From Catajapyx aquilonaris (lineage: Eukaryota), in the NCBI GenBank assembly GCA_000934665.2, contig JYFJ02000876.1:62001-115008 (forward strand): a stretch of DNA of 53,008 nt, given 5' to 3'. The stretch's first letter is position 1. Every line of letters begins with the position of its first letter. Of the stretch, positions 1-48,000 are shown one piece after another. A program made the position numbers and the translations under genes. A model generated the notes under the pieces. That model worked only from the letters and a program-made list of their open reading frames with translations, did no database searches and was not told where the DNA came from.

Positions 1-1392
1 ATGGTGCTGTAAACGCATTAGTCAACAGAGTTGCCGATTGTCGAGCTGTAACTGAAGTTGGAAAACTGTGAATTTCACCTGGTGAAAATTTGCTGGAAGT
101 CATGGATGTAGTTGAGGCTTCAGCATCTAATGTTGGGAACGAAGCTGAACGTGATGCGTCAACAAAATTAGGAGGGGAATCCTCAAATGTTGCTAGGGAT
201 GAACTTCTGGCCAATGCCAAAGTTGGGAATGACGTTGTATCTCCCAGCCCCAAGGCGTCCTCAAGTTCGGAGATGGGAATCACCATACTTTTTCTGGAAC
301 TCCGAGTGACAGGAGATACTTCGTCAGAGGAACTTGATTCCTTCTTGCGACTCTTCTTCCCTCCCTCCCTTCTAAACCTGCTTCCGCCCCTCCGCTTATC
401 ATCCTTTTTGAACCTGCTCTTACTATCGGAGCTACTCTCACTGCTAGAACTGGAACTAGACACTCTCTTCCGTCTTTTGCGCCCCTTGTCCCTACCTCTC
501 TTCTTCTCATCGTTATCTTCACCGCGTTTCTTCTTTTTTACAGGCTCGTCATCACTCGACTCACTCCCTCGCTTTTTGTGCTTCCGCTTATGGTGCCGTT
601 TCTTCTTCTTCTTGTGACGGGACTTGTCCTTTTCAAAGGGAGGATCAGCATTGAAAGCACTGAACAGTTCAGAAAGGATCTCATTTGATGACTTCTGTAG
701 CGCTTCATCTACAGCCTCTTCTACTTTGACAAGCTTATCCTTTGGCTTTTCCTTCACATTGCTTTCACTTTCAGACATCACTACACTGGAACCCGACGCT
801 TCATCATTGCGGCCATTAGCATCTGAAGAGAAAGGCAAAATTTTAGAACTTTCATCGCAAATATATTACAATAATATACTACCGCCCAATTAATAGCTCC
901 TGGTAATACACATAAAATGTTAGAATAACTCCATGTTAGTGTACTGACTTCCCGACAGGAATCCGTAAGTTGAGATGCACGCACTAAAAGCAGCTCTCAA
1001 GGACACTTATTACCCAGTTGTTTGCCACTCTGTACGTTCCATTATTTGCATGGCAATCAGCATGGCCTTATCTCCCAACCTAGTTTATGGCCATATTGCC
1101 CTGAATTCTTCCCTATACATACAATGCACCCCATTTACTCCAAATACTGGCCGGATCGTAACGATTAACGCAAAAATGTGTACGTTCAGTTTCCTATTCC
1201 AGGTCGCTGCATATTTGTTAATTTTTTTTTTACTTGTACTGTACTCTATTGGGGTCAACTGCAGCTTCATACGCTGATTAACTGTTCTTAATTGCTCTGA
1301 ATTTCTCTTAAAGCCTTGTCATTCTGCCACCAACCATTGGTGTTACCCTCCGCTTGTGCCGCCGCCTCACTGGTCTGCTCCTCCTGGCTCAT
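1..1392 (-). CDS. Son: SON-like nuclear speckle/splicing protein, 5' part only (runs off window start)
   Basis: Exon 1 1392-1347 (MSQEEQTSEAAAQAE+G, GT donor). Exon 2 runs from 822 to the window edge after a ctcttcag acceptor, phase-1 compatible and open throughout. It encodes KSSNEILSELFSAFNADPP followed by a Lys/Arg/Ser-rich tract (KKKKKRHHKRKHKK...SSSSSSSESSSDS), which resembles the insect SON N-terminus as I recall it. The G-patch/DSRM domains would lie outside the window. Confidence 0.6.
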
Positions 1393-1662
1393 TGTCCAGT
1401 CGTCCTGCTCCGGGTGCGGACCATCTCCGGGGACGCCACAGGAAGACGGGGGGCAACAACAAGGCCCGATCGATTTATTCCAGACCACTCGAACGTCTGA
1501 CCGACATTTTCCTTCTCTTCAATCAGAACATGGAGGGTCGTTTGTAGCCTAGCAGTTGCCCTGCTGTTTATAAGCGGCTACGTTGTGACGTCACGATTCA
1601 AGATGGCAGCCTTCTGAGGATTTTATTTTTTGAAAGGATTTGAAGGATTTTGAAGTGAAAAA
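1393..1662. promoter_or_regulatory. Bidirectional promoter Son / mRpS9
   Basis: Divergent start codons 270 bp apart. Palindromic CRE GTGACGTCAC at 1585-1594 and YY1-type AAGATGGC at 1600-1607. Confidence 0.6.
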
Positions 1663-4600
1663 ATGAGTGTTTTGGTGGGTCGGATTGGCGTTTTGAGGAT
1701 GAATTTGCGGATGGGGATGGATGGGGTGCGGAGGGCGGGTGTCAGCACGTGTGGTGTGTCGTGCCAGCAGCAGAATAAGGATGCGGGTCAGGAGAAGGAA
1801 AGGAAGATCAACAAGGCCATGAGGTCGTACCTGGAGAGAGCCACAGACCATGGTATACCTGATTTCTTTTTTTTTAAACAAACAAACAAACAAACAAACA
1901 ACAACAACAACAAAAATCATTAAAAAATGTGTGCTTTGCAAAATGTACATGTGATGAGAAAATGCTGAATATTTTTTTGGCACATTCTTCGTATGTGGGC
2001 TGCTGATTCTAAATGGCAGCAATTTCATTTCCCCAGATAATTTTATGAAGAAGCAAGTCGCAGAGTTCCAGATTGGGAAGCGGCATTTGGCCAACATGAT
2101 GGGTGAAAATCCGGAGACTTTTACTCAGGAGGACATTGATGTAAGATGTTCTTCGTAAAAAAAAAAAAACAGTTATTGACAGTTCAAATGTCATAGTACA
2201 TTGTAGACAGAAATATTCTTCTGATTTTCTTTTTCTTTCTACAACTTCTTACAGTGTGCCATTTATCATAACTTCCAAAAATAAATCAATTCGAAGACAA
2301 TTTTGAAAACGTATGGTTTCTCTGGACTTTGATAATATTATTTTTGGCTTTTTTTTAGATGGCAATTAGATACTTATTCCCATCTGGAGTGTATGATAAA
2401 GCAGCCAGACCCATGATGAGGCCACCAGAAGAGATTTTTCCTCAACGGAAAGCAGCTGAGTTTGATGAACAAGGCCGACCTCGCCACTACCTATTTTACA
2501 CCGGACGACCTGGATATTATGAAGTGCTACATGTGAGAAACAATAAGTAATTATGAGGAGGTCATATAAATACGTGTTTTATTTCTATGCAGAATGCTGT
2601 GGTATACATGAAAGAACTTGATACTTACGAGGATGAAATGATCAGAAAAGGTCAGCAGCCGGAAGGAAGACTGTAAGTAAAACCTCTGTTGAATATTGTC
2701 AATGAATACCGCACTTAAAGCTTTATAATAGTGGCATATACACGTTTTCGAAATATGGCGAGTAATTGGCAGGATGACAATGCTTGTTTAAAATTAATCC
2801 CAAATATGAATTTTAATTTGCAGTGATCTCACTGGAAGTGACTGGTTGAAGCAAGATCAGTTTGAAAAAACCATCTTAGAGACCTTGAAAGAACAACACG
2901 TAAGCATAATTCAATCAGGTTCACTTACCTCACTCTCTAAGAGCAGCACAGTGACTAATAATTTGTTATAGTACAAGCAATTCGTGATGACAATGGAACG
3001 ACTGAGCGAACATCCGTATGCCTATCGAGTGAAAGACTTCATTTTTAAGTACAGGAAGCCTTTTTTGATTCATAACAAATCTATATCAATTCCAGAGGTG
3101 AGCAGCATTTATGTGATTAATAGCTGTGATTATTATTATTATTATCCAGTGTATCATCTGTTATAATTATATTAACCTTTTCAGCCAGTGAAAGATGAGA
3201 CAGGCAGGCTTACGGTTAAGTCAAAAGGTAAATATAATCAGTATGCAAATGGTGATAATGCAAATTGATACGGACACGTTTTGTTTTGGTTGATTTTCAG
3301 GTAATCGAAAAAAGGCAATGTCAGAGACCACCGTTTGGAGTCCGGGCACTGGGAAAATAAAAATAAATGGACAAGACCTGAGTTACTTTGAGGACGTACA
3401 ATCTCGTGAGCAGGTAGGAATTCATAGCAATGTTTTTCATCTGCATGGAGCAAGAGCAACAAAGTCAAGTTTCATTCGGATTTTATAATCCACTTTCAAA
3501 AAAGAAGTCAATTTAAGGTGCTACTTTTATGTCGGGGTTTCAAAAAAAAAATGTAAGAATGTTGGACTTGGATGGAAATGGTAAATGCAAAAGTGGCATT
3601 CCAAGAAGATATTGGGTGTGAATCCATCAAAAAAAAAGGCCTGATTTTTTATTGTAACTAAAAATCCGCTCCGTGATTACAGAAAAAAACAACTATTACG
3701 CCAGTTGAAATTTTACGGCCTATATATCAATACGTTAAGAAACCTTGACGGTTCTATTCGATTTTACGAACAAGGCTGGTGCCATTCTCTGCTTCCTCAC
3801 CTTGCTTCTCTTCCTTTCTCTCATTGGGAGAAGCTATCGCTAACTTGTAAGAAAAGATGGAGCGAAAGGGTCTTCTTCTTGAGGTGTTACGCAAGCCACT
3901 GGCGGGTCACACTTCTACATAAACATTGGTGAAAGTTATTCGGTTGATTCACCTCATTTCACTGTTCATTGAGTCGTATTCTGTTTGACAATTGTGATGA
4001 TCAAGAAACTATAGTCGAGAGGGATCTATATAACAAAGAGATCTATAACAAAACAAGTCTCGCATGAGGAAGAATAACACTTTGACCAAATTAAATAGGA
4101 CAGCACTGGAATGTTCGGAACGACTTTTTACATCCTGATATTACAACCCATGTAATTGACCCACTTTGGACATGAAGAATGTGACATGTAGTTGTTTTAT
4201 TGCAGCAAGTACAGTAGGTTTAATTCACACAATAGTGCCAATGCATTCAATTGATGACAATGGAATGTAATGACAGTAAGGCATGACCCAATTAATAATT
4301 TCAGCAAAATGGAGGCTAATTATAAATTGGCCTCAACTTCCTCCTCCTGTCACTTCGTAGCAATGTGCTAACTCACCCATATGTCCCTCAAATGTTTGAC
4401 GTCAGCAACTGCTTCATAACAGCCGACACTGTTGAAGGAGTTTGAATTGAATATATCACTTATTTGATTAACCTAATGTCAACATTTGCACTTACATAAA
4501 TGCATATTATTGGCAGTACGCAGGACAATGTATTGCGAACTACTATTCACTGACGCAGAGAGCTTCAGACAATAGCATCTCAATTGTCACATTCTGATTG

Positions 4601-7600
4601 AATCTAGTTGTTACTGGAAATTGACAGTTCGACTCAATGCAACTATGAATTTTAATAACCTGCATAATTTTGTGAAGGCTCATTAGTTGCTCCTAACGCA
4701 CGCAATAAACTTAAACGCTGCAAGGCCATCCGATACTCAAAACGTGTCAAGGCAAATGACCACATAACATCAATATCTATCCGATAGGTGCATGTCTTTT
4801 TTGGTACTTTCGTACTTGTACCCAGATCGGCCTTAAAACAAACAACGTATTAAATCTACAAAAAAAGACACCAATTGTCCTTGGTCACCAGACCAAAACA
4901 TGTCTCTCTAACCTGTCAGGGGTCATCTACATAATTATGTACCATCATCGTCGCCCTCATTCGCAACTTTTTTTGCATGTGAGTTGGGTGTACCGTACTT
5001 TCCCTTGCTTAAAGGTAAAAAAAAAAAATAAGGAGAAGGAAGCAAAAAAACAAGGTCGTGCAGAGGGAAGGTAGGTTTGTTTGCAGATTTTTGTGCAGTT
5101 GCTCGACCGGTTGTTTCGCGAATGGACGGTTCCCTTTGGTGGCTCTGAGAAGATGAGAATTGCTGACGTGACATTGAAGACTAACGTTGTGTGAAGCAGC
5201 TTTACAAGATGCCTGCGGATATTAGAAGGTGAGGTTGCTATCTAGAGATTTTAATGCTAGAACGTGGCGGATTTACGTAGTGGGGAATTTTCGCAATAAT
5301 TTACCTAAGTGCCTGAGGCTATGGGGGGGAAAATGCGTAAGTTGATTTTTGCACACTTTGTTAGCCAGGGAGTTTCCCCTTCTGATGGGCTATGACGCAT
5401 TGCAAAAATGGACCTGCGTGTTTCAGCGAAAATTTACGAGCCATTTTTGCATTCGCGATTGTACTTTGCGCACAGACGGGCTTATCAGGATGCTGGTTTT
5501 TATCAAGTAGGTTCTGTAATAAGCATAAAAATAGACTTTGCAATTGATGGCAATATGGTCATCTGCTAATTTGGTCTCATTTCTTGCAAAAAAAATGGTG
5601 GAAAATTACAGTTTGCGGAATTGTGGGGATCAAAAATATTCTGGTCTTTGTACAGCTACTTGTATGGAAGCAAATTAGCGCAAAATTTCCGATTACGTTA
5701 TACATAATCTGCAATTTCTTCCTGAAATTGTGTTACTACATGTTATAAAATACAAGCCATTTAATTACGTAATTGCAAATTTCAGAATTGTGAAGAGTTG
5801 AAATCAGCGTTTAATTTATGATTATTTTTTCAACCGTTTCAATTATTTTATGACACAATTATTACATTGTTTAGTGTCATAATTGAAAGTTGCAGAATTG
5901 CACTTTAAAGTCATTATTTGTTTACACAGTGTTTATCTATGAACTATAATTGGGTTTTTGCAAGAAATGATAGCAATCAAAGCTGTTTTCTTGTAAAAAA
6001 ATTTTTTAGAAAATTAATAAGCCAAAATAGCAATGCATTATACTAATTTAAATTTAGCAGAATATGATGCTCTCAGCTGTAGAATGTCACATTTTTTTTG
6101 AGTGACGTTTCAAACGTTTTGCAACCGCAAAATAACACTTTTTGTGTTCACCGCCTTCAATTAAATACTGATAAAAAAAATTGTGTTATGCTTCGATGAT
6201 CTGATTTGTTTGTGCAACCAGGAACTAGTGGTTAAAAATGTCGCTGTAGCCTTCCTCAGTCAGGAAGTTTAGTCATGGCCATATGTTGACACACTCATTA
6301 ATGACACCGTAATAATTTCAGAGACAGCACATCAAGCGAGATGGATAAGCGGGTCCGATCACAGCGACGCAGCAGCACCGTCAGGCGGGGTTTGTCCAGG
6401 TTTGGTTCTTCGATCCGCAATGTGGCACCTAACAGTCTTCGGAGGAAGTGGCGCCAGCTTTGGAAGGATGAAGTGGACGAGGAGGATGTGGAAAAAGCAC
6501 CTGAAACTAACACCCATACGCTTCCAATTTGGAACTCGGTTGATGGCTTGTCTTCTGAGACTGCGTCGTATGGACCTGCAACTTTTCACTCACAACTGAT
6601 GAGCTTGGACGAGTCTCTTCGAGCACCATTACGTGTTGTGAATGTGACGGAAGCGCAGTCAACACTTACCGAAATGCTGACATCACGGGGAGGTAACACC
6701 GAAGCGTTACGTTTGATCCAACAAGGTGGCGATGTCGTAGATGGACACACTGACTATGAACGCAATGTGTTGATGCTGCAGGCTGCTTTAAGCGGCAGAC
6801 CAGACTTGTTACATGCATTGTTAAACCATGGAGCTGACTTGGAGTTTGCGGATAGTAATGGAATGTGTGCTGTCCACATGGCAGCATTGTCCGGCTCATT
6901 TGAGTGCACTCGTATTGTTACAACTCTACAGCCACAACCTGTCGATACTTGCCAAACTACTCCGCTACATTGTGCAGTGTGGGCTAGATCCGAGCCGGTG
7001 TTAACTCATCTGTGCCACATATACACTATACCCGGTGATTTAGTGCACACGGCAGTACGTGCCAATGCCCTCAAGTGCCTACATTTCCTACTGAAGCAAG
7101 AGGGAGTGGACGTGGATGTATGTGACTCAACAGGAGAGATCCCGCTCAACATTGCGGCCGACACAGGCCACTTGGACGCACTCCAGATCCTACTAGACGC
7201 AGGTGCTCAGTTGCATCTGAGGACATGTGCAGATGAGGCTACTGCTTTGCACTTGGCAGCTGAAGGCGGACATGTGGAATGTGTCCGGAAGCTTTTGGCT
7301 GGTGGAGCTCACCCGCAGGTACTTGTGTAAAATTACTTGGCGTACAGTACTGAACTGACGAACTGTGTTAATTTCGCAGGTTCCAAATTACCGTGGGCAG
7401 ACCCCGCTACATCTGGCCGCCCGTATGGAAGCTGTCGATTGCGTGGAGGTCCTCCTTGACGCAGGTGTTGACCCAAACGTGGTGGACCAGGATGGACGCA
7501 CGCCTCTGCACAATGCCTTGGCTCGCGAGTGCCATTCATATGATGTGGTCAATTTGCTTATGAATCGTGGTGCAAATGTCAATCAGCAGGACCAGTATGG

Positions 7601-10017
7601 GTACACAGCATTGCATTTAGCCGCTCTCAATGAACTCAACCCTGTTGTTGACCTGTTGTTGCGGTCAGGAGCCGACATATCACTGCGCAACAGTGCTGGG
7701 ACCAGCGGACTGACCATGATTGTTAACAAGACACCGGCTTCTTTGGCGACAATACGCGAACGGCTAAATGGATCCATTTCTATATATGATCCGGAGACAC
7801 GCAATCAGGAGGTTGAATTGAAGTTTGATTTCCACGCGTTAGTGCCACATGGACGTCGGGGTGAGATTTGCTTGTTTAAAACCATGGTTGCAGACGGACA
7901 GAAGGATTTCTTGAAGCATCCACTCTGCCGTGCTTTCCTGTTTCTCAAATGGCGCAAAGTGCAGAAGTACTTCTATGCACGGATCCTTTTCTGTAGTGTG
8001 TTCATTGCTTTTCTAACGCTCTTCGTACTCTCCGCTCATGCTCGTTGCGAGGCAGTTGATGACATAGGTGGCGAAAAGGGTTGTGATGATTTTGTTCCAA
8101 TGGTTGCCGAACCTCTACATTATGTGTATTCGTACATTTTAATGTTCCTAGCCTTTTTGCACATTGCGAAGGAGGTGTATTTGATATTAGTTGCGCCAAG
8201 TTGGAAAAGCTACGTGTGCGATATTGAGCATGTACTGTTTTGGACTATGATTTTGTCCGTGTTTCTGATGACGCCAGTTTACACGCAAAGGGTCGAGCCG
8301 TGGCAACGGTATGTTGGAGCTGTGTCTGTGCTGTTAGCATGGGCATATTTTATGTTGTTGGTAGGACAGCTGCCGATATTTGGCATGTATGTGCAGATGT
8401 TCAGCACAGTGCTCAAAGATCTTTTCCGCATACTTGTAGTGTATGTACTTCTGTTGCTGGGGTTTACATTCAGCCTGAGCGTGCTGTACGCCCAGTACAC
8501 TGCATTTCGTGACGTTTGGGGCTCCTTTGTGAAAGTCGTTGGCATGATGATTGGTGAGATTGAATTCAGCAATCTCGTAGATAGCGACAGTAACAGTGTG
8601 TACTTCCGATTTGTAGCTCACAGCATCATACTTGTTCTGATGGTGCTAGTTACGATTGTGCTCATGAACCTCATGATCGGCATGGCTGTTCGTGACATCC
8701 AAGAGCTTGAAGCCACCGCTGGTTTGCTTCGACTGGTGCAAGTCACCGATCTTGTTGGATACATGGAATCTATGTTTTTGTCCCCTTACTGGAAGTACCT
8801 GCCAACCTGGTTCCAATCCATGTTGGAACGTAACTTGCTCCTTTCACCCGCCAGCTACAGATGGGTCTTCATAGTTCGGCCGTTAGACATGAGGGACACA
8901 CGGCTTCCAAGAGACATTGTGACTGAAGCATACCAACTGGCATTAAGCGAGAAGCATGCCCTGCAGATGCATCGCAAAGTGTCGCGATTCCTCTCAAACA
9001 CTTCGTTTCTGACCGGAGAAGGCGACATGAACTACAGTCAGACTGCTATCGTAATTGATGGCATCGTCACCTCTGCAATGGACAAGAGATTTGGACCCTT
9101 GGAGGACAACATTCGGACACAGATACAAGAACTGACTACTGCCATTCAAAGTTGCCAGAATGCTCTCGTGGACATTAGCGCAAAAATGAACACGGAGAGC
9201 GTCCCACTGGCTGTGGAAAGCGAGTGCTAAACGTGTAATGAACAGGTGCAATTAATAAAAAAGAGTTCGTAACAACAAGGAATATATATTTGTAATAATG
9301 GAGCTGATATCCATTGTTTGTAGCATAAAGTAATTCAAATATGAAAACGACTGTATCGTACGCTGCCATTCATCCATATTCAAATGTGCTAAATATGTAC
9401 CCTTTTGCAATAAATGTTTTTGTAATATTAAACCCTTTCTCATTAACCGTGCAATTAAAGTGAATATTACAGATTTCGGTGTAGTTATGTACCTGAACAT
9501 GTCAGTGTGCAGGGAAGTATGTGATCTACTTTTGATCAGGTGTAAATATTAGCAAAGCAACTAATTACGAAGAAGCACTGCTTGTGCCACATTTTACGTT
9601 GTTATGAGCAGAAGAATGTGACATCTGGACATTAATTTTGTGCCTATTTACAGCTTTCATGTCGTTATTTTTTAAATTGTGAATCATTGTTTTCTTGCAG
9701 GTCATGTTCCCACTGCAGTTCACCGACCTGCTTGGCAAGGTTGATTTTGAATCTACAGTGACAGGTGGAGGTCATTCAGGTCAAGCTGGAGCAATCAGAT
9801 TCTCCTTGTCGCTATGCTTGCAAAGCTTTGTAGAACCCGACGTGGTCGAAAAGATGAGACTTGGTGGGTCAGTTTGGTAAAGTGGTTTTCAGATCTTACA
9901 TTTACGCCTTTTTTATATATTCCAGCTGGCCTCTTGCAGCGTGACTTCCGGATTAGAGAGAGAATGAAGCCGGGGCAGGCAGGAGCTCGAAAGAAATACA
10001 CTTGGAAGAAGCGTTAA
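1663..10017 (+). CDS. mRpS9: Mitochondrial 28S ribosomal protein S9 (uS9m), 10 exons
   Basis: Exons 1663-1852, 2037-2140, 2359-2532, 2593-2672, 2824-2899, 2972-3097, 3185-3227, 3301-3413, 9701-9863, 9926-10017; all GT-AG and phase-consistent. Arg-rich presequence, [31 protein letters not shown] and C-terminal [20 protein letters not shown] are typical of uS9m. AATAAA at 10052-10057. Confidence 0.95.
5209..9230 (+). CDS. wtrw: TRPA-family cation channel, water witch/pyrexia class (~955 aa), nested in mRpS9 intron 8
   Basis: Exons 5209-5228 (MPADIR.., donor AG|GTGAG), 6322-7318, 7380-9230 join in frame. N-terminal ankyrin repeats ([29 protein letters not shown]), pre-S1 EVELKFDF...[17 protein letters not shown], six hydrophobic segments, pore GMMIGE, S6 [15 protein letters not shown]. 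The linker looks closest to Wtrw; the exact subfamily is unverified. AATAAA at 9254 and 9409. Confidence 0.9.
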
Positions 10018-10104
10018 CTCTCTTTCATTTGTAGCAAACTTTGTACAGAAAAATAAAAACAGTTCACCTGACTACCAATGTACAAAATAAGACCACATCC
10101 AGCA

Positions 10105-12762
10105 TCACATCTCCTCAAGAGGACGGAGGCCCAGGATGTTCATCCCGGCCCTCAAGGTCAGATGGGCTGCATGGAACAGCAGCCTCCGTGGCTCTGCTAC
10201 CTCCGCAGGCTGGCCTTTGACGGGAAGCACCTTCAAAGCAGTGTTGACGCTGTGACTGTAAAGTAAATGGTACGATGTGGAAAACACGTGGTTACACATA
10301 TGACAAGTCCTGCACCTGATGCCACATTATCGAGGGTTGATTGCCCTTCCTAAATTGACAATCACACTATTTCAAACACGCACCTGAGCTGGAAGAGGTA
10401 CTGCACCATAAGGCACGGCTCGAGCTCGATCCTACAAGCGGCAACCACCTCCTCAAAGCGTGCAATTTCTCCAATCAGGTACATGGCCTCCCTTTCCTTC
10501 AAGGGAAGGATGGAGCAATCAGGAACCAAGTCCACTCCGCAGTTGTGCGCCAGGCTGCCCAATCGGCACTGAGTGTACTGCAGGCGGACGCCAGAGTAGG
10601 CCGAGTTCTCCATAACCTTCTCCCAGTCGAATGTGTAATCACGCTGGCGACGCTGTTTCATGTCGTTCACCAGGATCGAAGTGACGGCCAGAATTTCAGC
10701 AGTCTCGTCTGCGTAAGACCGTGTGGCTGAAAAGTAGCACAAAGATATAAGTAACGTTCATGAGCAGCTTTTCACGACAGACTCACTGGGACTGGCTTTC
10801 TGCTTAGCCATTACAATCTCCTTGGCCTCGTCAATCACATCTTTGAGCAGAACTGCACTCCCCTTTCTTGTGCTCATCCCCAAGATGCGGCCGAACTTCA
10901 CGTGATGCATCCCTGCCGCACACTCCTCTCCCATCTTCTCTACCAGGCGGAAAAGGGCTCGCAGGTGGTCCGACTGGGCATTGTCCACTACGTAGTACAA
11001 CTTGTCGAACTGGTACCGCTTGTACCGGTCAATAGCTGCGGCCAGGTCACGGGTTAGGTACAGGGTGGATCCGTCACTCTTCACTAGAGTTACCTGTTGA
11101 AGACAATGAGTTAAAATTTTTATCTGGAATACCTGAGTGATACAGACCTGTCTTCCTGGCTCCGTGTTGACAACCTCTCGGCCATCAGGAAGCTTGTGTA
11201 AGATGTACATCTGTCTCAAACTCTCCAGCAGAGGTGTCACTTCGCTCGCTGGATACATGGACTCTCCGTGGTACTCATCAAAGTTGACGCCCAGACGTTG
11301 GTACGTTGCATCGAGCTCCTTAATGGTGAAGTCTCTGAACTGTTTCCACTGCTCCATCTCGCTACTCCCGCCTGTTTCCAAGCGATGGAAAGCCTCACGT
11401 GCTTCACCTGCCACGCGAGGGTCAGCCTCGGCGTCCTTGTTGGCCTGGACGTATATCTCAGACAAGCGTGACATCGGATCTGCAGCAATGGCATCCTGAC
11501 TGACCCCCGACCTTTTGACCCCAACATTGAGCAACCCAAACTGCGTGCCCCAGTCGCCCAGGAAGTTCAGACGTGTCACTCTATTTCCAACTGCCTCATT
11601 CAAGTTCGCCACAAAATTCCCGATGATTGTCGATCGCAAGTGACCAACATGGAATGGCTTAGCGATGTTCGGTGAGCTAAACTCGACCACAACCCGCTCT
11701 TCCTTGAAGTCGTCAAACAGCACGCTCCTCTTCCAAAACTCCGGTTCAGCCATAACCTCATCCAAGACTAGCCTGGTGAACTGATGCTTATCAACTCCAA
11801 AGTGTAGCCGCTGCATCTTCTTCTCACCTTCGCCCACGGTCGACACGCTGGGTATGACCGGATCCGTTCCAAACCTCAAGATGATATCTGACGTCGCATG
11901 GACCCCACCAGTCGGCAGCCGGCTCACAGGCAAGTGAAGATCAAACTTCGACTCAGACTGTGGCTTCGGGTCAACCGATATAAACGGCAGGAGCGACTGC
12001 GGAGTCAGCTTCCCCGCAGTCAATCCCAACTCATTAATCGCATTCACAACCTGTAATCATTAATGTTATTAATTACGTCGGCCAAGACGTCAGCTGTCTG
12101 TACTCTTAACTCTATTAAGTACTTATACTATGTATTAGTAATGTTCATAAGTGTCTTATTTACTCTATTAAGTACTCCATTTCATCGATTAGGTACGCTA
12201 TTAAATTTATTTACATGATTAAGTACTCTTATTTACATGATTAAGTACTCTTATTTACATGATTAAGTGCTCTAATTTATTTACATGATTAAGTACTCTA
12301 ATTTATTTACATGATGAAGTACTCTAATTTATTTACATGATTAAGTACTCTAATTTATTTAATTTATTTACTCTATTAAGTACTCCATTTCCTCGATTAG
12401 GTACTCTATTAAATTTATTTACATGATTAAGTATTCTAATTTATTTTTCTTGATTAAGTACTCTATTTACTTTCTTTACTTGATTAAGTACTCTATTTAC
12501 TTTCTTTACTATATTAAGTACTCCATTTAATTTATTTACTCTATTAAGTACTGTACTAAGCATTAGTAATGTCCATAAGTTTCTTAACCTGCAAATAATC
12601 TATTTTAAAAATCTATTATCCCGGCAGTATTAAATGTTCTGTACTGTTAACTCAAGTACTGCTAACCCCAATTAAAGTACTGTGCTGTTCTAAGTATGAG
12701 TAACGTTCTGAAGTTTCTTAACCAACCTTTGAAGCCACCAAAGTCCTAATTTTGGACGCCAT
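10105..12762 (-). CDS. RARS2: Mitochondrial arginine--tRNA ligase, 5 exons
   Basis: Exons 12762-12727 (MASKIRTLVASK), 12050-11148, 11093-10787, 10726-10384, 10255-10105. Contains VEFSSPNIAKPFHVGHLRSTIIGN (HIGH motif), GDWGTQFG, KSDGSTLYLTRD, GMSTRKG and the C-terminal MNILGLRPLEEM of ArgRS. Confidence 0.93.
12110..12570. repeat. AT-rich minisatellite (~22-27 bp unit, ATTTACATGATTAAGTACTCT) in RARS2 intron 1
   Basis: Many degenerate copies of (T/G)ATTAAGTACTC, most preceded by TTTATTTACATG or TTTACTC. Confidence 0.85.
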
Positions 12763-34500: not shown

Positions 34501-37500
34501 ATGCCTGCTCTGCTTTCTCTTCTAGTCCTAGGTAAGTTTGCCTTCTATTTTATAATGTGTACAATATGCCCATTTTTGAGGTACCCACCAAACATGACTT
34601 GTCGAGGACATCTCCAGGAAGCCGGCTTAGGACACGATCTTTTCAGAATAATGCTGGGAGGTTGTCTCAAGCACGTCTTCTCGTGTGATAAAGAAACTTC
34701 TTTTCATGCACGTAGCACGTGCCTGTAGATAACTGGATTTAAAATTCGGCTGATTTTTTAACTTTAAAAATGCTGATGACAAACTGTATGTAAATTGACC
34801 AGAGAAATCTTTAGTGTAAAAGGTTAAGGCGAAGGTCAATTTCTCCGGATGTTTCTTCTTCTTGGCATGGGAAGGACTTGTTGGTATGGGAGTGGAGCAG
34901 ACCACTTTCTTCGGTGGGTTCGTTTGAAACACCGGTCATGTAATGTACCGTATGTGTACTACCGGAAGGAAAAAGGTCAAAAAAAGGTCAGAGTCGCGCG
35001 GAAAAGAACTCTCACTCGACACGGTTTTTTGGACATCTGGAGATGACCGTGATGGGTAGTGTTGTGGTGCGGAGGAAAACCTGCTTGAAAGTCGTGGGTC
35101 AAAGGTCATTCCTGGTGGTCAAATTGGAGGAGGGTCAGGAGTGACCTTTAGGTGATTTCGAAGGGTGTAATGTGAAGGAGGTTAAACCCATGGGGGCAAG
35201 CAAAAAAGTGAGAGGAAATCACTTTGCAGATTTAATGAGTCGTCATTTACATAATTAATAAAATTACTATTGTTTTATTAATTTAATGTTGTAGTTAAAA
35301 GGGAACTAGTCCGGGGGGGGGGAGGGAATTAGTTCGAGCAAATATTAATTTAACTCTCTAACGTGATGAGCGAGATTTATAGACTTTTGGGCGTACTTCT
35401 CTTCAAACCACATCCTATCATCCATCCAAAAACGGCTTAGTTGAAAGGTTCAACAAAACATTCGTCATGGATGTACACAGCACATTGTTATCGTTGTTAT
35501 TTATTTTCTAGATAAACTGGAACTAGTTACAGTTGTCCGAAGAGAAATTAATCATAGCAAATATTAAGTTAACGGTCACATTCATAATTAAGCACATTAT
35601 CGTTATGTATATTTAATTTTCTAGTTAAAACGGGGAACTAGTTACAGTTGGCCCCGGGGAAATTAATTAATAGCAAATATTAATTTAACGGTCACCAAAT
35701 TCGTGAATAATATGTACTCAGCACATTATCGTTGTTATCACGTTAATTCCAATCTAAACGACTAGTTACAAGCATGCAATCGCAATTAGAAAGCATAACG
35801 TGACAAAAGTATGTTTTACGCTAATTTGTTCATCGCCACGCCAATTTTATTACATCATATTTTTTGACAATATTAACACCTTTTTTCTGCAATTTTTTTT
35901 GCGCATGAACACGACAGATGAGCCAACATTTCGCAACAATTACCGAACATTAATTAAGCCATTTTCACTGCTCCATTTGGCTCTCATCATCAGGTTATTC
36001 TGCCAAGTGATGGTTTTACAAAAAAATGAAAACAGGGGCAACGACTTACGCTCAATCAAGATGAGGTAGGGAAAGTGAAAATTGTTATAATACACATACC
36101 ATCAGTATGTGCTCTGGGTTTAAAGTAGGACATGCCTTGTAAAACTAGTTCTTTGCTTGATGAGGGATGCTGCTGAGATAACTTCCCTTTTTCAAAACGG
36201 GGGGGGGGGGGGNGGGGCCTCCCTCCGAGTGCGCGTTATTAACAATCAACAATGAAGCTTTCTACTTGCTGTGTTATTAATGTGTAACTATTTGAGAGCA
36301 GTAATTACTGTGCTTTCATTTCAGGTGTGTTTGTGGCTCCGACGGTCATATCAACTGCCACGGTACGTTGATTTTTTTATTTTTCAATTGTCCGAACTGA
36401 TTCCCAACAATTTGAATGGTCACCTAATTCGTTGCGAAATTATGCCCGAAATTATGCGAGACAATCGAATAAACTGTGTGGCGCGCATCACAATGAAGAG
36501 AAATCCGTTAATTATAATATTTTACGTCAAAAAATTCACATTTCAAAAAAAAACGTAAGGTTATGTCAGCTGAATCGTAATGTGCGGTCGTACTTTCACT
36601 GCAAATCAGAAGAATGAACGACACTAAAATGAAAGTGACGCATTCCGTACTGAAAACAATCGTGGCATAAAAAATTTCACATGGTAGTGTATATATACGG
36701 AAGTCACACCATGTGTTTTATAATAATCCTTTTTAGTGAATGACCCCCCCTCTTCTTTCATCATCACTCAAAAAGCTGCTCTCAAGAAAGTGAAACTGGT
36801 CAGAATAAGGACCTGCCATAACTTTCGCTGTGCATGATTCTCTGTTTTCTGGGGTGCTCCTTGCGTGGTTTGTTACGTGAAGGAAGCCAATGTGATGTGC
36901 TGTAATTGCATCCTACTTTTTTTTTCTCTCCAGACATCACGAGCTGTGTCTGAAGGTTATCCTTTCCGGTACCCTTCCGGTGGACCTAGACCACTTCGGT
37001 TTGGAGATAGGATACCAACCAGTACTGAATCTCCAGAGTACACTGAGACATACCAGACCAGCACAAGTTTTCCGGAGCAGACTGGTACATATGGTACCAC
37101 GCAGTACCAGCAGCCAACAAGTGGAGGTGGAGGGTACCAGGAGGAGCTCAGGAATTACCAGCGACATGACAGAGGTAATGCTGTGGTCTGACCAAATATT
37201 TTGTGGTTTTAATTGTTGGCAATTTCCAGATTACCCTCATGAAGCGGCTAACAATTGCAGCGAACCGTATGGACGATGCGGGGTGAGACTTTCACTTAAT
37301 ATGACTGCATCAATTATTATTAACAATGTTGGTTTCAGGAGCAGCAGCAAAGTGAGGACTATCAACTTCCAGCAGAGTCAACTCCTAGAGACTTGGACCA
37401 TGAGATAAACGATGTGACCGGACATGACCATCAGCTGACCCGAAACCCATTCCATCAGGCTTCGTATCCACCGGTGACGACCCTAGTGCCTTCGACACCT

Positions 37501-40098
37501 CTGCCGAACTACACACCTCCTGATGACTCTTTAATAAGGTACACAGCGCCTGTGACCAAACCCAGCAAGGAGTTTCTGCCTCCTCACTTAGACACCACTC
37601 TGAACCAAGACTTCAACACTCAATCTCCTGTTGAGAAAGTGGTGTCTCAAGACATCCATCTTGCGGCTCAGCAATCCAGTAGGCCATCTTTCTCACGGCC
37701 TAGTCCCAACTACCTGCCAGCCACCTTTTCAGGGCCGTCTTTTCCCAGCAACCCTTTCCCTGTCCAACAACAAAAGCATGAAGGTACAACCCCAGCGGCG
37801 CAAGAAGAGTACAATCAGGTGCAATCTCAGCAGAAGCCAACAGCACCTGCTTCAGAGTACCTCCCACCGTTTGAGCAACCGGAGCAGTACACCACACAGC
37901 AGCCTAGTGTTGCACCAGAGTACCTGCCACCGTTTACTACATACAGGCCAACAACCTCACAACAGGAGAGCCATAAGCCTATTAATGCCATTCCATCACC
38001 CACGGTCAAACCGGAGTACTTACCACCGTTTAGGAAGCTGAGGCCATCCACTTCCGGATACAACAACTCGGATGCACCCGGACACTTTGTAACTCAGTTG
38101 CCGCAGTCCACTCCACAACCGAACTACCTTCCGCCTTACCAGAACCAGCAGCCGTTTGTGAACCCGAATCCGAAAGTGGACAGCCATTCTTCCAGACAGC
38201 CACCTCCAGAGGCACATCCGGAGCCGTTTGATGGCAGACCGCATTATGACCAGACAGGGGCAAGTCCGCAGCATTTTGGAGGTACTGGCAGCACATTTCC
38301 GCCTCAGACGCAGTCTTCAGGGAGACCCACAAACACATCTCCATCCACGATCGGGAAGGAGTATCTACCACCTGTCAGCGACTACCAGAAGCCCAACAAG
38401 GCGCCTCAGAGCATCACAATTCCGATATCGTCACCAGGACCGCAGTACTTGCCGCCTGTTGACGACTTTGCAGGTAACAGGCAACAGCAACCGCAATACC
38501 ACCAGCAACAACAGCCACAACAGCAACAGCCACAACCACAGAGCCCCAATTACTTGCCGCCATATGAAGAACCGACCAGGCCTCACACTTCAAGCACAGC
38601 CTCACCCGTACCATCCCAAAGCAACCGGTACTTGCCTCCACACAATCTACAGCAATTCAACCAGAACCTCCCTGCAGCTGAGCACACCCCTGGTCCTAAG
38701 TACCTGCCTCCACACACCAGTCAACAACAGACATTCAACCAGAATCTACCATCAGAACCAGAAAAGCACACACCTGGACCTAAATACTTGCCACCAATGA
38801 AGTCGACACCAGTGGTTCCAACTGGTCAGCAGCAAAGTGTGGGTTCAACTCAGCAACAGCAGAATGTGGCATCTCACCAGCAACATTACCAGCAGCCTGT
38901 GGGTCCAGTTCAGCAACAGAGTGTGGGTCCATCTTACCAACAACAAAATGTGGGTCCATCTCACCATGAGCAGAGTGTGGGTCCATCTCAACAGCAACCA
39001 TCTTCGGAGTACGTGCCACCTAACGCCAACCCAACACCTGATAGTGTCCATGTCCATCCGTCTGTCCCATGCTGGCCTCCTACGCCCAAACCGTCGTACC
39101 TGCCGCCTGTGGACACCGTGTTTGACTCCTTGTCTGCTCAGAGCCTTAGACCAGCCAGAGTATCAACACCAGCACCTGACCAGGAGTACTTGTCTCCAAA
39201 CGCTCTACTGTCAAGGACCGGTCTGCTGAGCGACGATAAACCTGAACTGGTGACTGAAGGACCAGCTCGTGAGTTGGTACCCCCGTACACATCCAACCTG
39301 GAGGAATCACCAGTCGAAATACCAGTGGAGGACCTGGATTTGACAGAAGAGGACCTCTCCCCACTGCTAGAGCGATTGGAAAAGACACTTGAGGTCAACC
39401 CCAAGGAGATCACAGAAGACGACGGGTATCCAAGGTACCAGCCGCCGATCAGTATTGAAGGACCGCAGAACAAGCCACTGGAGTACAAGCAGCCGATCAA
39501 AGTGGAAGGTACAACCCAACCACCCAAAGAGGAAAAGCCTGAGGAAAGATCGACTCAACCACCAATAGTGATGGACGAAGGAGTTGCCCGGAAGATCAAC
39601 AGCTTCCTGCGCAGTCCTGCAATCAGCAACCACATTGCATCCAAACCATACTCTTCAGCAACACCTCCACCAGCACCAACAAGGCCGTACTACCAGCCAC
39701 CTCCACCACCACCGAACCCGTACTACCAACAAGGAGGCAACTCATTAGCACCATGGAGCTACACGCCTCAACCATACACCACCCAACCGTACTGGCAACC
39801 AGTACAGCAGCCTCAGTACAGACAGTACGACTCGTTCCCATCAGCCACGTTCAACTACAATCCATGTCCGTACGGGCAATGCGGGTACCCAGCGCCATAC
39901 CACCAGTACCATCCTCCTCCGCATGCAGCACCGCCTCCGTACCAATACAATGCGTACCAGAACGGAGGACCAAATCAAAACCGTTTCAATAACGTCCAGC
40001 AGGGCCATACTAGTCAGCAGGATTATTCCAAAAGGGCGGTTGATTCGGCCACATACGCTCTTTCGCATCTGGCTCAAATTGGACCCAATCGCTCCTGA
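34501..40098 (+). CDS. Secreted Pro/Gln-rich YLPP-repeat (cuticle/apical ECM-type) protein, ~1040 aa
   Basis: Exons 34501-34531, 36325-36362, 36934-37174, 37230-37282, 37339-40098 are phase-consistent. Signal peptide MPALLSLLVLGVFVAPTVISTA, 11 exact YLPP motifs plus variants, QQSVGPS repeats, Tyr/Pro-rich C-terminus. AATAAA at ~40547. Probable 5' UTR exon ending at the GTAAG donor near 33395. Confidence 0.8.
35300..35772. repeat. Degenerate ~115-125 bp tandem repeat in an intron of the YLPP gene
   Basis: AACTAGTTACAGTTG...AGCAAATATTAA(G/T)TTAACGGTCAC...AGCACATTATCGTT recurs at ~35521 and ~35636, with partial copies at ~35304 and ~35761. Confidence 0.65.
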
Positions 40099-45067: not shown

Positions 45068-48000
45068 TTACTGCGGAGGGAGGTACCCGCGAGGAGGACT
45101 GGTTTGACGACCTGGTGTGGTACCGGTGCCACCGAAACCAGGAGTGCCGCCAGGACTAGGGCCAGGGTAGGACGGACCGGACGGACGAGACGGGGTGGTG
45201 CCAGGGAAGCCGCCGGATGGGCCCGTGGGCCGCCCCGGGGTGGAACCTGGGGTGCCATAGGACGAGCTGGGGGTGCCACCGGGTCTGGAACCTGGGAAGC
45301 CGGAAGGAGCAGGACGACCACCTCCGGTACCACCCGGATATCCTGGCTCTGATGGATATCCAGTACTTGGACGTCCTGAAGGAAATCCGGTAGATCCGGG
45401 ACGGGATCCGGGATATCCAGGAGTGCTTCCGGTGCCTGGGAATCCACCTGGAGCACTACCAGGTCGACCACTGGGATATCCTGTTGGACCTGTTGCGGGA
45501 CCTGCTCCGGGACGGCCTGATGGATATCCGGTCGATCCGGGTGCGGATCCAGGACGGCCGCCAGCTCCAGGATATCCGGTTGATCCGGGGGCTCCACCGG
45601 CTCCAGGGAAACCGCCAGGACCCGTAGTTCCAGGACGCCCAGCGCCGGGATATCCAGTAGTTCCAGATCCAGGATAACCTGTTCCGGGTGCACCGCCTGT
45701 ACCGGGACGTCCGCCTGCTCCGGGATATCCGGTGGGCCCAGTTGGCGCGCCTGATCCGGGATATCCAGTTTGTCCAGGTGCACTTCCAGGACGGCCTCCA
45801 GCTCCGGGATATCCGGTTGATCCAGGTGCACCGCCAGATCCAGGATGGCCTCCAGCTCCGGGATATCCGGTTGATCCAGGTGCACCACCAGCTCCAGGAT
45901 ATCCTGTTTGTCCGGGTGCGGATCCAGGACGGCCTCCAGCTCCGGGATATCCGGTTGATCCAGGTGCACCGCCAGATCCAGGATAGCCTGTGGATCCAGG
46001 ACGTCCAGATGCTCCAGGATATCCGGTTTGTCCGGGTGTTCCGCCAGCTCCGGGATATCCTGTTTGTCCGGGTGCGGATCCAGGACGGCCTCCAGCTCCA
46101 GGATATCCGGTTGATCCAGGTGCACCATCAGCGCCAGGATATCCTGTCGAACCAGGACGTCCAGAAGCACCAGGATATCCAGTTTGTCCTGGTGCAGATC
46201 CAGGACGTCCACCAGCTCCAGGGTACCCAGTAGATCCGGGTGCACCACCTGATCCAGGATAGCCAGTTTGTCCTGGCCGACCTCCCGCTCCAGGATATCC
46301 AGTAGATCCAGGTGCACCACCAGCTCCAGGATATCCAGTTGTTCCAGGAGCACTTCCGGGACGTCCACCAGCTCCAGGATATCCTGTTTGTCCTGGTGCA
46401 GATCCAGGACGTCCACCAGCTCCAGGGTACCCAGTAGATCCAGGTGCACCGCCAGCTCCAGGATATCCTGTTTGTCCAGGACGTCCACCAGCTCCAGGGT
46501 ACCCAGTAGATCCAGGTGCACCGCCATCTCCAGGATATCCTGTTTGTCCAGGACGGCCTCCAGCTCCAGGATATCCAGTTGATCCAGGTGCACCGCCAGC
46601 TCCAGGGAAACCAGTAGATCCGGGTGCTCCACCAGCTCCAGGTCTTCCTGCAGGGGTGACTCCAGGACCTCCAGTGTATGCCCCACTAGGACCTCCAGCT
46701 CCAGGGTACCCACTGTCGTACCCACCCGGACCACCAGGACCACCAGGACCACCAGGACCCTCAGCATACAAGAACTCGTTCAGATTGTACAGGTCCGGTG
46801 CGGTATTGCAATCGAAATCGGGCCACCACACGCAGACAAAGTAACCCTGATGGAACACAGTCCCGTTCGGACAAAGGAACGAGAACATCCGTCCTCCATG
46901 GCAGATATGGAAGACCTGGCACTGCGCCTCAACATCCGCGAAGTAACCCTGGTACTGCTGTTGGTTGCAATCAAACGAAGTCTGTGGCACCTCCGCATAT
47001 ATTGGGTAATCACGTCCAGGTTCACCCGGAATCGCAGAGTAATCTCCTTCGTCAAAGTCCTGCTGGAATCCTCCAGAACCTGGGAATCCTTGTTGTCCAG
47101 GTTGGAATCCGCCTTGTTGCCCAGGCTGAAATCCTCCTTGTTGTCCAGGCTGGAATCCGCCTTGTTGTCCAGGCTGGAATCCGCCTTGGTGTCCAGGCTG
47201 CGTTCCAGGAAATGCTCCAGGGCGAGCACCGGGGCCAGATCCAGGACGAGCACCGTGGCCAGCACCAGGGCGGCCCCCGGGTCCGACCGGACCAGGCTGT
47301 TGGGTGTACCCACTTCCACCTCCAGGTCCTGTTGGACGTCCACCAGGGATAAGTTGGCTTCCAGGTGGTGGTGCTGGATAGTCGTATGGACCACTCTCCT
47401 GGCCCTGGAATTTTTCCCCAAGGTAATTAGCCTTTCTCATGCATATGCTCATTTGAATAAAACACGATAGCCAGGTGCGATTAGACTAGAGGTCTAGTCA
47501 GACTTAATGAGACTTGGGCTATTAGCATTCTCACACCTAGGCGAGTATGAATATTAATTGGAACCAGCTGGATGGGAACATCTAGCAAACTTGTTAATTA
47601 TCCTAATAGGCTTATTCTCTCTGTCGGGTGTTTGTCCGACCTGATAGTATCACTACCTCTCGCACGATATGAAAGTGGCAGGAGTGTGCAGAGGAAGGGT
47701 GTGACATCTATGTGTGACGAATAGTACTAGGTGGTAAATCGGCGATCACTGCTTGCCAAATTTTGCCAAATTTTGCAAATAAATTACCAAAAATGACCAA
47801 TTCGTCCCCCCCCCTACTATAGCACCTTTGCTAGAGTCAGTATGCATGAAAAATTATTAAATAATATGACGTACCAGTGTGTTCCCAGATATGGCCAGAA
47901 GAACTGGAAGAAGAAGAAGAAAAAAGGAAGTTATTGTTTCATGTTCCCTCCGCCCTTCAACATATAACATAATCTGTGTGAGAATCTTTTTGCCAACTCA

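Follow-up and report, generated by a model that had tools for sequence, protein, structure and literature searches.

A TRPA channel gene of probable water witch type nested within an intron of the mitochondrial ribosomal protein gene mRpS9 of Catajapyx aquilonaris

The TRPA channels of insects include water witch (Wtrw), which in Drosophila is a sensor of moist air, as well as Pyrexia (Pyx), HsTRPA and TRPA1. Where one gene is nested within another, nesting on the opposite strand is commoner than nesting on the same strand. In a 53,008-nucleotide stretch of the genome of Catajapyx aquilonaris (assembly GCA_000934665.2, contig JYFJ02000876.1, positions 62,001 to 115,008; this whole stretch of eukaryotic, arthropod DNA is referred to as the window), a complete channel gene of the TRPA family is found inside intron 8 of mRpS9, the gene for mitochondrial ribosomal protein uS9, on the same strand as its host, with a gene for mitochondrial arginyl-tRNA synthetase (ArgRS) next to it downstream. 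The reading preferred here, to which a probability of about 80% is given, is that the channel is a Wtrw-subfamily gene lying in an ancestral same-strand nest, which is defined by a phase-0 intron of mRpS9 situated after the residues ...REQ and by the convergent ArgRS gene downstream.

Most Wtrw genes are intron-less, with zero to three introns having been reported (PMC2753570). HsTRPA is a sensor of heat and chemicals that is described from Hymenoptera only (PMC5810042, PMC2753570), and together with Wtrw it forms a tandem pair: the two are neighbours in Apis and Nasonia (PMC2753570), and in Solenopsis 3.7 kb separates them (PMC5810042). Matsuura et al. proposed in 2009 that Wtrw originated as a retrogene, on the grounds that most Wtrw genes lack introns (PMC2753570); their text names no host gene and contains neither “ribosomal” nor “nested”, and it leaves unnamed the conserved neighbours of Wtrw and HsTRPA in their Figure 4. 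mRpS9 is not mentioned in the portions considered of PMC2753570, PMC5810042 and PMC11824891. No paper naming a Wtrw-in-mRpS9 nest was found in the literature searched on mRpS9 with Wtrw, Pyx or nesting, and in the literature searched the mRpS9 number CG2957 did not occur together with the channel numbers CG31284 or CG17142.

The Catajapyx channel shares with Wtrw its clade in phylogenetic trees, the plan of ankyrin repeats followed by six transmembrane segments, the paucity of introns, and a genomic position that is the same as that of the Wtrw-clade genes in ant-like contigs (see below), with which a gene model of Clunio marinus is consistent; it differs in being 35–42% identical over exon 3, in forming the earliest and longest branch, and in having two introns. 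In the ant-like contigs, an HsTRPA-like copy follows the Wtrw-like one at a distance of 3.8 kb within the same mRpS9 intron, whereas the Catajapyx intron holds one channel gene and HsTRPA is confined to Hymenoptera. Pyx, the sister subfamily, resembles the channel in domain plan and in length (the matching Drosophila Pyx proteins have 956 amino acids) and has given its name to the automatic annotations of the best matches, but forms a separate clade in maximum likelihood (ML) trees, and Pyx-clade genes are unlinked to mRpS9 and ArgRS where they can be compared. Exon 3 aligns with TRPA1 (human structures 6PQQ and 3J9P; Drosophila structure 7YKR) from the last ankyrin repeats through segments S1–S6 and the pore (E 2e-57 against the human structures, positions 3–478 of the query to chain residues 512–995), but TRPA1 is another TRPA subfamily and the Catajapyx channel is shorter (955 against about 1120–1200 amino acids). 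Like other intronic nested genes of insects, the channel is a complete gene inside a host intron, apparently with a promoter and a 3′ end of its own; it differs from them in being on the same strand, and in that host, intron position and neighbour are conserved across distant insects.

The spliced mRpS9 translation comprises 386 amino acids encoded by ten exons (Table 1), and is 48–61% identical to named insect mRpS9 proteins. The introns measure, in order, 184, 218, 60, 151, 72, 87, 73, 6287 and 62 bp, and these exon models agree with the initial annotation, which had noted eight introns of 60–218 bp and an intron 8 of 6287 bp. Exon 8 (3301–3413) ends with the residues ...DVQSREQ in phase 0, and intron 8 cuts the Ribosomal_S9 domain of Pfam, such that exon 8 carries profile positions 1–39 and exon 9 carries positions 38–88; the region of exons 9 and 10 together carries positions 38–88 and 91–121.

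Within intron 8, three coding exons on the plus strand (5209–5228, 6322–7318 and 7380–9230) make up a frame of 955 amino acids, with the open frames 6305–7330 and 7359–9230 underlying exons 2 and 3. By Pfam, ankyrin repeats are found in exon 2 (Ank_2, E 1.4e-32, three stretches) and in exon 3 (Ank_2, E 1.2e-24, two stretches), and exon 3 also contains the ion transport domain Ion_trans (PF00520; E 3.9e-10, score 39.8 bits, cut-off 25). Six hydrophobic segments are located at amino acids 541–559, 592–610, 618–639, 650–668, 690–708 and 755–773. By homology, the product would be a tetrameric sensory cation channel with a hygro-, thermo- or chemosensory role. The claims that a complete channel gene lies on the same strand inside intron 8, that its introns are few (two, measuring 1093 and 61 bp), and that AATAAA signals occur at 9254 and 9409 are all borne out, the first by the frame, the Pfam domains and the transcript junctions described below; a further AATAAA is present at 4704. 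The transcribed leader of the channel contains two short upstream open reading frames (ORFs) before the ATG at 5209, one at 5122–5148 (8 codons) and one at 5153–5194 (13 codons), which hint that translation of the channel may be damped.

Five sequencing runs match the region: four are DNA-like and come from one sample, possibly the source of the assembly, and the fifth, X5, is from a second study. X5 comprises 85,611 contigs totalling 31.8 Mb and was taken as a transcript assembly in view of its spliced contigs. Its contigs were mapped onto positions 1500–10300, and their ends do not define true transcript starts, ends or cleavage sites. Every one of the nine junctions of mRpS9 occurs in a single X5 contig of 1357 nucleotides. 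Among them is the joint between 3413 and 9701, which passes over 6287 bases and has GT..AG borders; this is the junction that the initial annotation had named as a check of its gene model. Separate X5 contigs represent the channel (5043–5228 joined to 6322; 6358–7318 joined to 7380–7798; 7848–9347), and the channel is thereby seen to be transcribed with its own 5′ exon from 5043 and with both introns, as had been claimed. Both mRNAs, host and channel, are present in X5, i.e., in one sample, whose contigs are silent on cell type. No X5 joint runs from mRpS9 exon 8 into the channel, and X5 cover is absent in 3558–5027. Thus, host and channel are separate spliced mRNAs: the host splices cleanly over 6.3 kb, and the channel shows a first exon, two introns and apparently a 3′ end that are not shared with the host, its 3′ untranslated region (UTR) being reached by X5 contigs to at least 9347, a contig end that does not define the true end.

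The same contigs bear on the suggestion that the region has been misassembled or its genes wrongly modelled, with the channel in reality outside mRpS9. In its favour, the assembly may have been built from the very DNA runs that cover this region, and their contigs (X1, X2), which are colinear across 1928–10300 and contain none of the X5 joints, are not independent if that is so. However, the joint between 3413 and 9701, with its GT..AG borders, is present in a spliced contig of a separate study, one unbroken DNA contig covers 1928–10300, and the same arrangement is found in unrelated contigs, so that an error of this kind is scarcely credible.

The arrangement was also found in other insects. 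A set of 78 metagenome loci was taken by way of the channel alignment, and the spliced mRpS9 and the ArgRS exon served as queries against all of them; mRpS9 is present in three of them (L007, L008 and L015) and ArgRS in two (L008 and L009). The three loci with mRpS9 are ant-like and overlap with 99.9% nucleotide identity, and the first of their channels shares about 62% identity with proteins of bees and wasps. The order in these contigs is mRpS9 residues 5–303 (exon end ...YFEDFQHRQQ), an intron-less channel ORF of 962 amino acids, a channel ORF of 903 amino acids 3.8 kb further, and mRpS9 residues 302–386 (start QIIFPLLF), all on one strand, followed by mitochondrial ArgRS on the opposite strand. 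The intron is that of Catajapyx, with which it agrees in position (after ...REQ/RQQ), phase (0), strand and downstream neighbour. In the trees, the 962-amino acid ORF falls within the Wtrw of Hymenoptera and the 903-amino acid ORF groups with the C-terminal half of a fused model from Cephus, as sister to Hymenoptera Wtrw; this fits the published tandem pair of Wtrw and HsTRPA.

A second case is the gene model CLUMA_CG011885 of Clunio marinus, of which isoform B (P0436, 1298 amino acids) consists of mRpS9 residues 45–302 followed by a channel that aligns with Catajapyx residues 17–935 and groups with dipteran Wtrw-clade genes (IQ-TREE). Isoform C is a normal mRpS9 of 385 amino acids, and B and C part directly after ...YDQAREQ. 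Among the 120 mRpS9 proteins listed, 17 (7 from beetles, 5 from ants, 4 from flies and 1 unnamed) are without PF00380, homology being lost at Catajapyx residues 303–314; models that end at about residue 303 are an artefact to be expected from an unusually long intron at that place. Fused public models of two tandem TRPA channels, or of mRpS9 and a channel, are found in Cephus (P0241), Ischnura (P0243), Camponotus (P0247) and Clunio (P0436). The fused and cut models look like systematic annotation errors arising from the nesting or from the tandem channels.

The Clunio isoform bears on the possibility that host and channel form one transcription unit with chimeric mRNAs, or that they are regulatorily coupled or mutually exclusive in expression, the latter two being what the initial annotation had suggested. 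An in-frame isoform joining mRpS9 to the channel is annotated in that species, RNA-seq assemblies of Atta have the tandem Wtrw and HsTRPA genes “often resolved as a single gene” (PMC11824891), and the geometry forces the host transcript to read through the signals of the channel. In Catajapyx, however, X5 has no joint from 3413 to a channel exon, and the channel contig has a first exon of its own; a hypothetical splice from 3413 to 6322 (AGA CAG ... TAA) would halt the host frame at the ninth codon. The Clunio isoform may itself be a prediction artefact, and the authors of the Atta study could not amplify across their two genes (PMC11824891). A single transcription unit or a coupling of the two genes is considered improbable.

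Linkage can be followed further through public locus tags and contig sizes. In Henosepilachna, mRpS9 (WA026_018940) and a Wtrw-clade channel (WA026_018941; its clade was checked) have consecutive tags; channel and ArgRS are two locus tags apart in Pyrocoelia and Gonioctena, and in Aquatica and Zophobas a distance of three tags separates mRpS9 from ArgRS. Channel, mRpS9 and ArgRS are on equally sized contigs, used as a proxy for linkage, in Onthophagus, Cylas and Anabrus; in Nicrophorus, the channel and ArgRS are on a scaffold of 102 kb, and in Cephus, the fused channel and ArgRS are on a scaffold of 741 kb. In many beetles, as well as in a lacewing, a katydid and a sawfly, the Wtrw-clade channel, mRpS9 and ArgRS are thus neighbours by tag or lie on contigs of equal size. 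The contigs of Pyx-clade genes in Periplaneta, Coccinella, Anthonomus and Brassicogethes, by comparison, differ in size from those of mRpS9 and ArgRS.

As the ant-like contigs and the Clunio model point to the same intron and codon boundary, and the tags and contig sizes bring the three genes together, we infer that the nest was inherited and is ancestral to the Wtrw clade, rather than being a lineage-specific insertion. The initial annotation had proposed the opposite, i.e., that a divergent TRPA copy was inserted into mRpS9 by lineage-specific duplication. The channel is indeed divergent (at most 42% identity to any match over exon 3, and a long branch) and intron-poor, and lineage-specific duplication of TRPA genes is documented in arthropods (PMC2753570, PMC10993193). 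That proposal nevertheless has to contend with Wtrw-clade genes in the same intron and at the same codon in the ant-like contigs, with a Clunio gene model consistent with the same intron, and with a conserved ArgRS neighbour; furthermore, mRpS9 itself has a long branch (1.27) in Catajapyx, so that divergence is genome-wide and not special to the channel copy. A recent insertion is very unlikely, and the proposal is abandoned here.

Assignment of the channel to a subfamily was approached through its matches and through trees. The closest matches of exon 3 are all insect proteins, with 34–42% identity; NCBI calls most of them “pyrexia”, and one carries the name “water witch-2” given by its authors. 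The search of representative proteins was dominated by giant ankyrin proteins, and the channel domain is present in 33 of the 150 matches listed. Two trees were calculated, one with FastTree (91 rows) and one with IQ-TREE under LG+C20 with posterior mean site frequencies (44 rows, Hydra as the outgroup). The label Wtrw in these trees rests on Heliconius “water witch-2”, the Hemiptera and the tandem pair of Hymenoptera, no named Drosophila Wtrw sequence being included. The Catajapyx channel falls in the Wtrw/HsTRPA clade with a support of 98 (FastTree) and a value of 98 in the Shimodaira–Hasegawa-like approximate likelihood ratio test (SH-aLRT; IQ-TREE), and in IQ-TREE it is the first branch (length 1.27), sister to the remaining Wtrw clade (99). 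Members of this clade are Heliconius water witch-2 and genes of Hemiptera, thrips, Blattodea (two paralogues), beetles, a lacewing, flies and moths, as well as a mayfly, a damselfly and the Hymenoptera pair. The Pyx clade contains Pyx of Drosophila, Ceratitis and a sandfly (Sergentomyia), together with shorter “pyrexia-like” genes of beetles; homologues of an ostracod, a crab, Artemia and a springtail join it more weakly (SH-aLRT 86–89). Both ML trees set the Catajapyx channel apart from the Pyx of D. ficusphila and Ceratitis. The approximately unbiased (AU) test rejects a grouping of the channel with the Wtrw genes of beetles and lacewing (p 4e-62). The possibility that the basal placement is a long-branch artefact, with the channel in truth a relative of the beetle genes, was considered and is excluded by this result.

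The trees of the three genes disagree on the position of Catajapyx, and all three of its branches are long: the mRpS9 tree places it beside lacewing and beetles (85/93), the ArgRS tree places it outside both the pterygotes (95) and the malacostracans (99), and the channel tree places it below all pterygote Wtrw genes. Overall, the trees would suit a pancrustacean, possibly a non-pterygote hexapod or an insect that evolves fast.

The nested gene might instead be a Pyrexia orthologue, or an unsplit “pyrexia/waterwitch” gene, in which case the nest would be older than the split between Pyx and Wtrw. Nearly all of the top matches are named “pyrexia” by NCBI, the Catajapyx channel is the first branch of its clade, and decapods are reported to have one unresolved pyrexia/waterwitch homologue (PMC7067487). 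When the channel is moved to the Pyx/crustacean side, the AU test does not reject the placement (p 0.084, lnL difference 11.2). Against these points stand the ML support of 98 for the Wtrw side and the habits of automatic naming, as NCBI applies “pyrexia” to Hemiptera as well, although the surveyed Heteroptera are reported to be without Pyx (PMC10993193). In addition, true Pyx-clade genes are unlinked to mRpS9 and ArgRS in the four comparable species, and the channels of the ant-like nest and of the fused Clunio model both belong to the Wtrw clade. A Pyx or pre-split identity is accordingly regarded as unlikely. The label Wtrw-like, which the initial annotation had given to the channel, is upheld by the trees and by the position; judged by its sequence, the channel is Wtrw-like but not decisively so. 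The shared position, in the mRpS9 intron and beside ArgRS, settles the matter in favour of a Wtrw orthologue.

A number of observations weigh against a Wtrw gene in an ancestral nest. The AU result just given, together with the long branch of 1.27, means that the sequence does not by itself decide between Wtrw and Pyx, and X5 owes its status as RNA to the splicing of its contigs. The fused Clunio model shows order and strand, not a channel upstream of the last mRpS9 exons. Termite-like locus L009 has an intron-less Wtrw-clade ORF of 998 amino acids (3194–6190) that is 5 kb from ArgRS (11131–11973), and mRpS9 exons were not found in its 16 kb; neither were they found in the 9 kb (L004) or 10 kb (L010) upstream of the channel. 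Six-frame scans for uS9 motifs and tblastn were used for this hunt, with L008 found as the control and L009, L004, L001, L011 and L010 giving nothing. The contigs bearing mRpS9 and ArgRS are of unlike size in Periplaneta, and likewise in Zootermopsis, Oratosquilla and Halocaridina. Equality of contig size is a proxy for linkage, moreover, and contigs of chromosome size are little informative. The nest in mRpS9 is not universal across insects. In Blattodea, there are two Wtrw-clade paralogues, of which in Periplaneta one matches the contig size of mRpS9 and the other that of ArgRS (P0001/P0514 and P0032/P0139); the pattern is as if the ancestral block had been duplicated or split in Blattodea.

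If the Wtrw gene does lie in an ancestral nest, its history might be as follows. The nest probably arose by retroposition of a Pyx-like mRNA into this mRpS9 intron, and later duplications would have occurred in place, as for Wtrw and HsTRPA in Hymenoptera. The nest would persist because a gene in the intron of an essential host cannot easily leave without breaking that host. The host polymerase would pass the poly(A) signals of the channel, which, as seen from the host promoter, are inside an intron that is removed by splicing and may thus be harmless to the host, and the promoter of the channel, upstream of 5043, would be active only in the subset of cells that use the channel. A bolder version, held tentatively and at somewhat less than even odds, is that the whole Wtrw/HsTRPA branch was born as a retrogene in this mRpS9 intron and has been kept and duplicated there since before winged insects, and that read-through chimeras, as in Clunio, could feed low-level expression of the channel from a housekeeping promoter. 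Beside the early date may be set the position of Catajapyx outside Pterygota in the ArgRS tree and that of its channel as sister to all pterygote Wtrw.

Table 1. Positions, in the coordinates of the window, of mRpS9, the nested channel gene and the neighbouring ArgRS gene
Feature	Position	Strand	Remarks
mRpS9 (mitochondrial uS9), exons 1–8	1599..3413	+	ATG at 1663; transcript contig from 1599
mRpS9, coding exons 1–5	1663–1852, 2037–2140, 2359–2532, 2593–2672, 2824–2899	+	AG/GT-bounded
mRpS9, coding exons 6–10	2972–3097, 3185–3227, 3301–3413, 9701–9863, 9926–10017 (including stop)	+	AG/GT-bounded
mRpS9, intron 8 (host intron)	3414–9700	+	6287 bp, GT..AG, phase 0; X5 joint
Channel, exon 1	5043..5228	+	5′ leader, ATG at 5209 and first 20 coding bases; X5 contig from 5043
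Channel, intron 1	5229..6321	+	1093 bp, phase 2, GT..AG; X5 joint, frame check
Channel, exon 2	6322..7318	+	N-terminal region and ankyrin repeats; X5 cover 6358–7318
Channel, intron 2	7319..7379	+	61 bp, phase 0, after amino acid 339, GT..AG; X5 joint
Channel, exon 3	7380..9347	+	last ankyrin repeats, six transmembrane segments and pore loop, C-terminal tail; stop 9228–9230
AATAAA	9254–9259 and 9409–9414	+	X5 contig extends 93 nucleotides beyond the first
mRpS9, exons 9–10 and 3′ UTR	9701..10149	+	X5 contig; UTR end at least 10149
Mitochondrial ArgRS gene	10105..12056 (low coordinate approximate)	-	tRNA-synt_1d, E 8e-73; convergent with mRpS9

The best named matches of the downstream neighbour are “probable arginine--tRNA ligase, mitochondrial”. 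mRpS9 and ArgRS converge in the region 9926–10388, where their 3′ ends are about 100 nucleotides apart or overlap: the mRpS9 contig reaches 10149, and the coding side of the last ArgRS exon ends at or below 10258. An X5 contig with a loose end at 10258 resumes with the letters at 10388, and therefore an ArgRS intron lies between. The tail-to-tail arrangement of these two nuclear genes of mitochondrial translation is conserved in the ant-like contigs, and locus tags indicate the same for beetles.

In the rest of the window, 14 other long frames were compared with Pfam and only one matched, a chitin-binding and collagen-like frame of 805 amino acids (45068–47485, minus strand), which has a Peritrophin-A chitin-binding domain and a collagen-like stretch. 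An open frame of 924 amino acids (37324–40098, plus strand) has no Pfam match. Several long frames overlap at the 805-amino acid frame and suggest low-complexity repeats. Upstream of mRpS9, a Ser/Lys/Arg-rich frame of at least 288 amino acids (2–865, minus strand) runs past the left edge of the window and has no Pfam match.

The locus is not a new kind of system: insects have many nested genes, and the family to which the channel belongs is a familiar one. The channel adds a divergent new member to a known subfamily, and its nest is visible in public annotation. The novelty that the initial annotation had seen in the nesting is thus largely removed, by public sequence and annotation rather than by a paper. 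For Catajapyx, the gene is named as Wtrw-type and not as “pyrexia”, as automatic annotation would have it, and the models of both genes are fixed. For the family, the nest serves as a positional marker by which Wtrw and Pyx can be distinguished in cases where trees resolve little. The nest also accounts for the mRpS9 models cut at about residue 303 (the 17 of 120 listed) and for the fusions in Clunio, Cephus, Camponotus and Ischnura, and it offers the hypothesis of a retrogene origin of Wtrw a concrete landing site.

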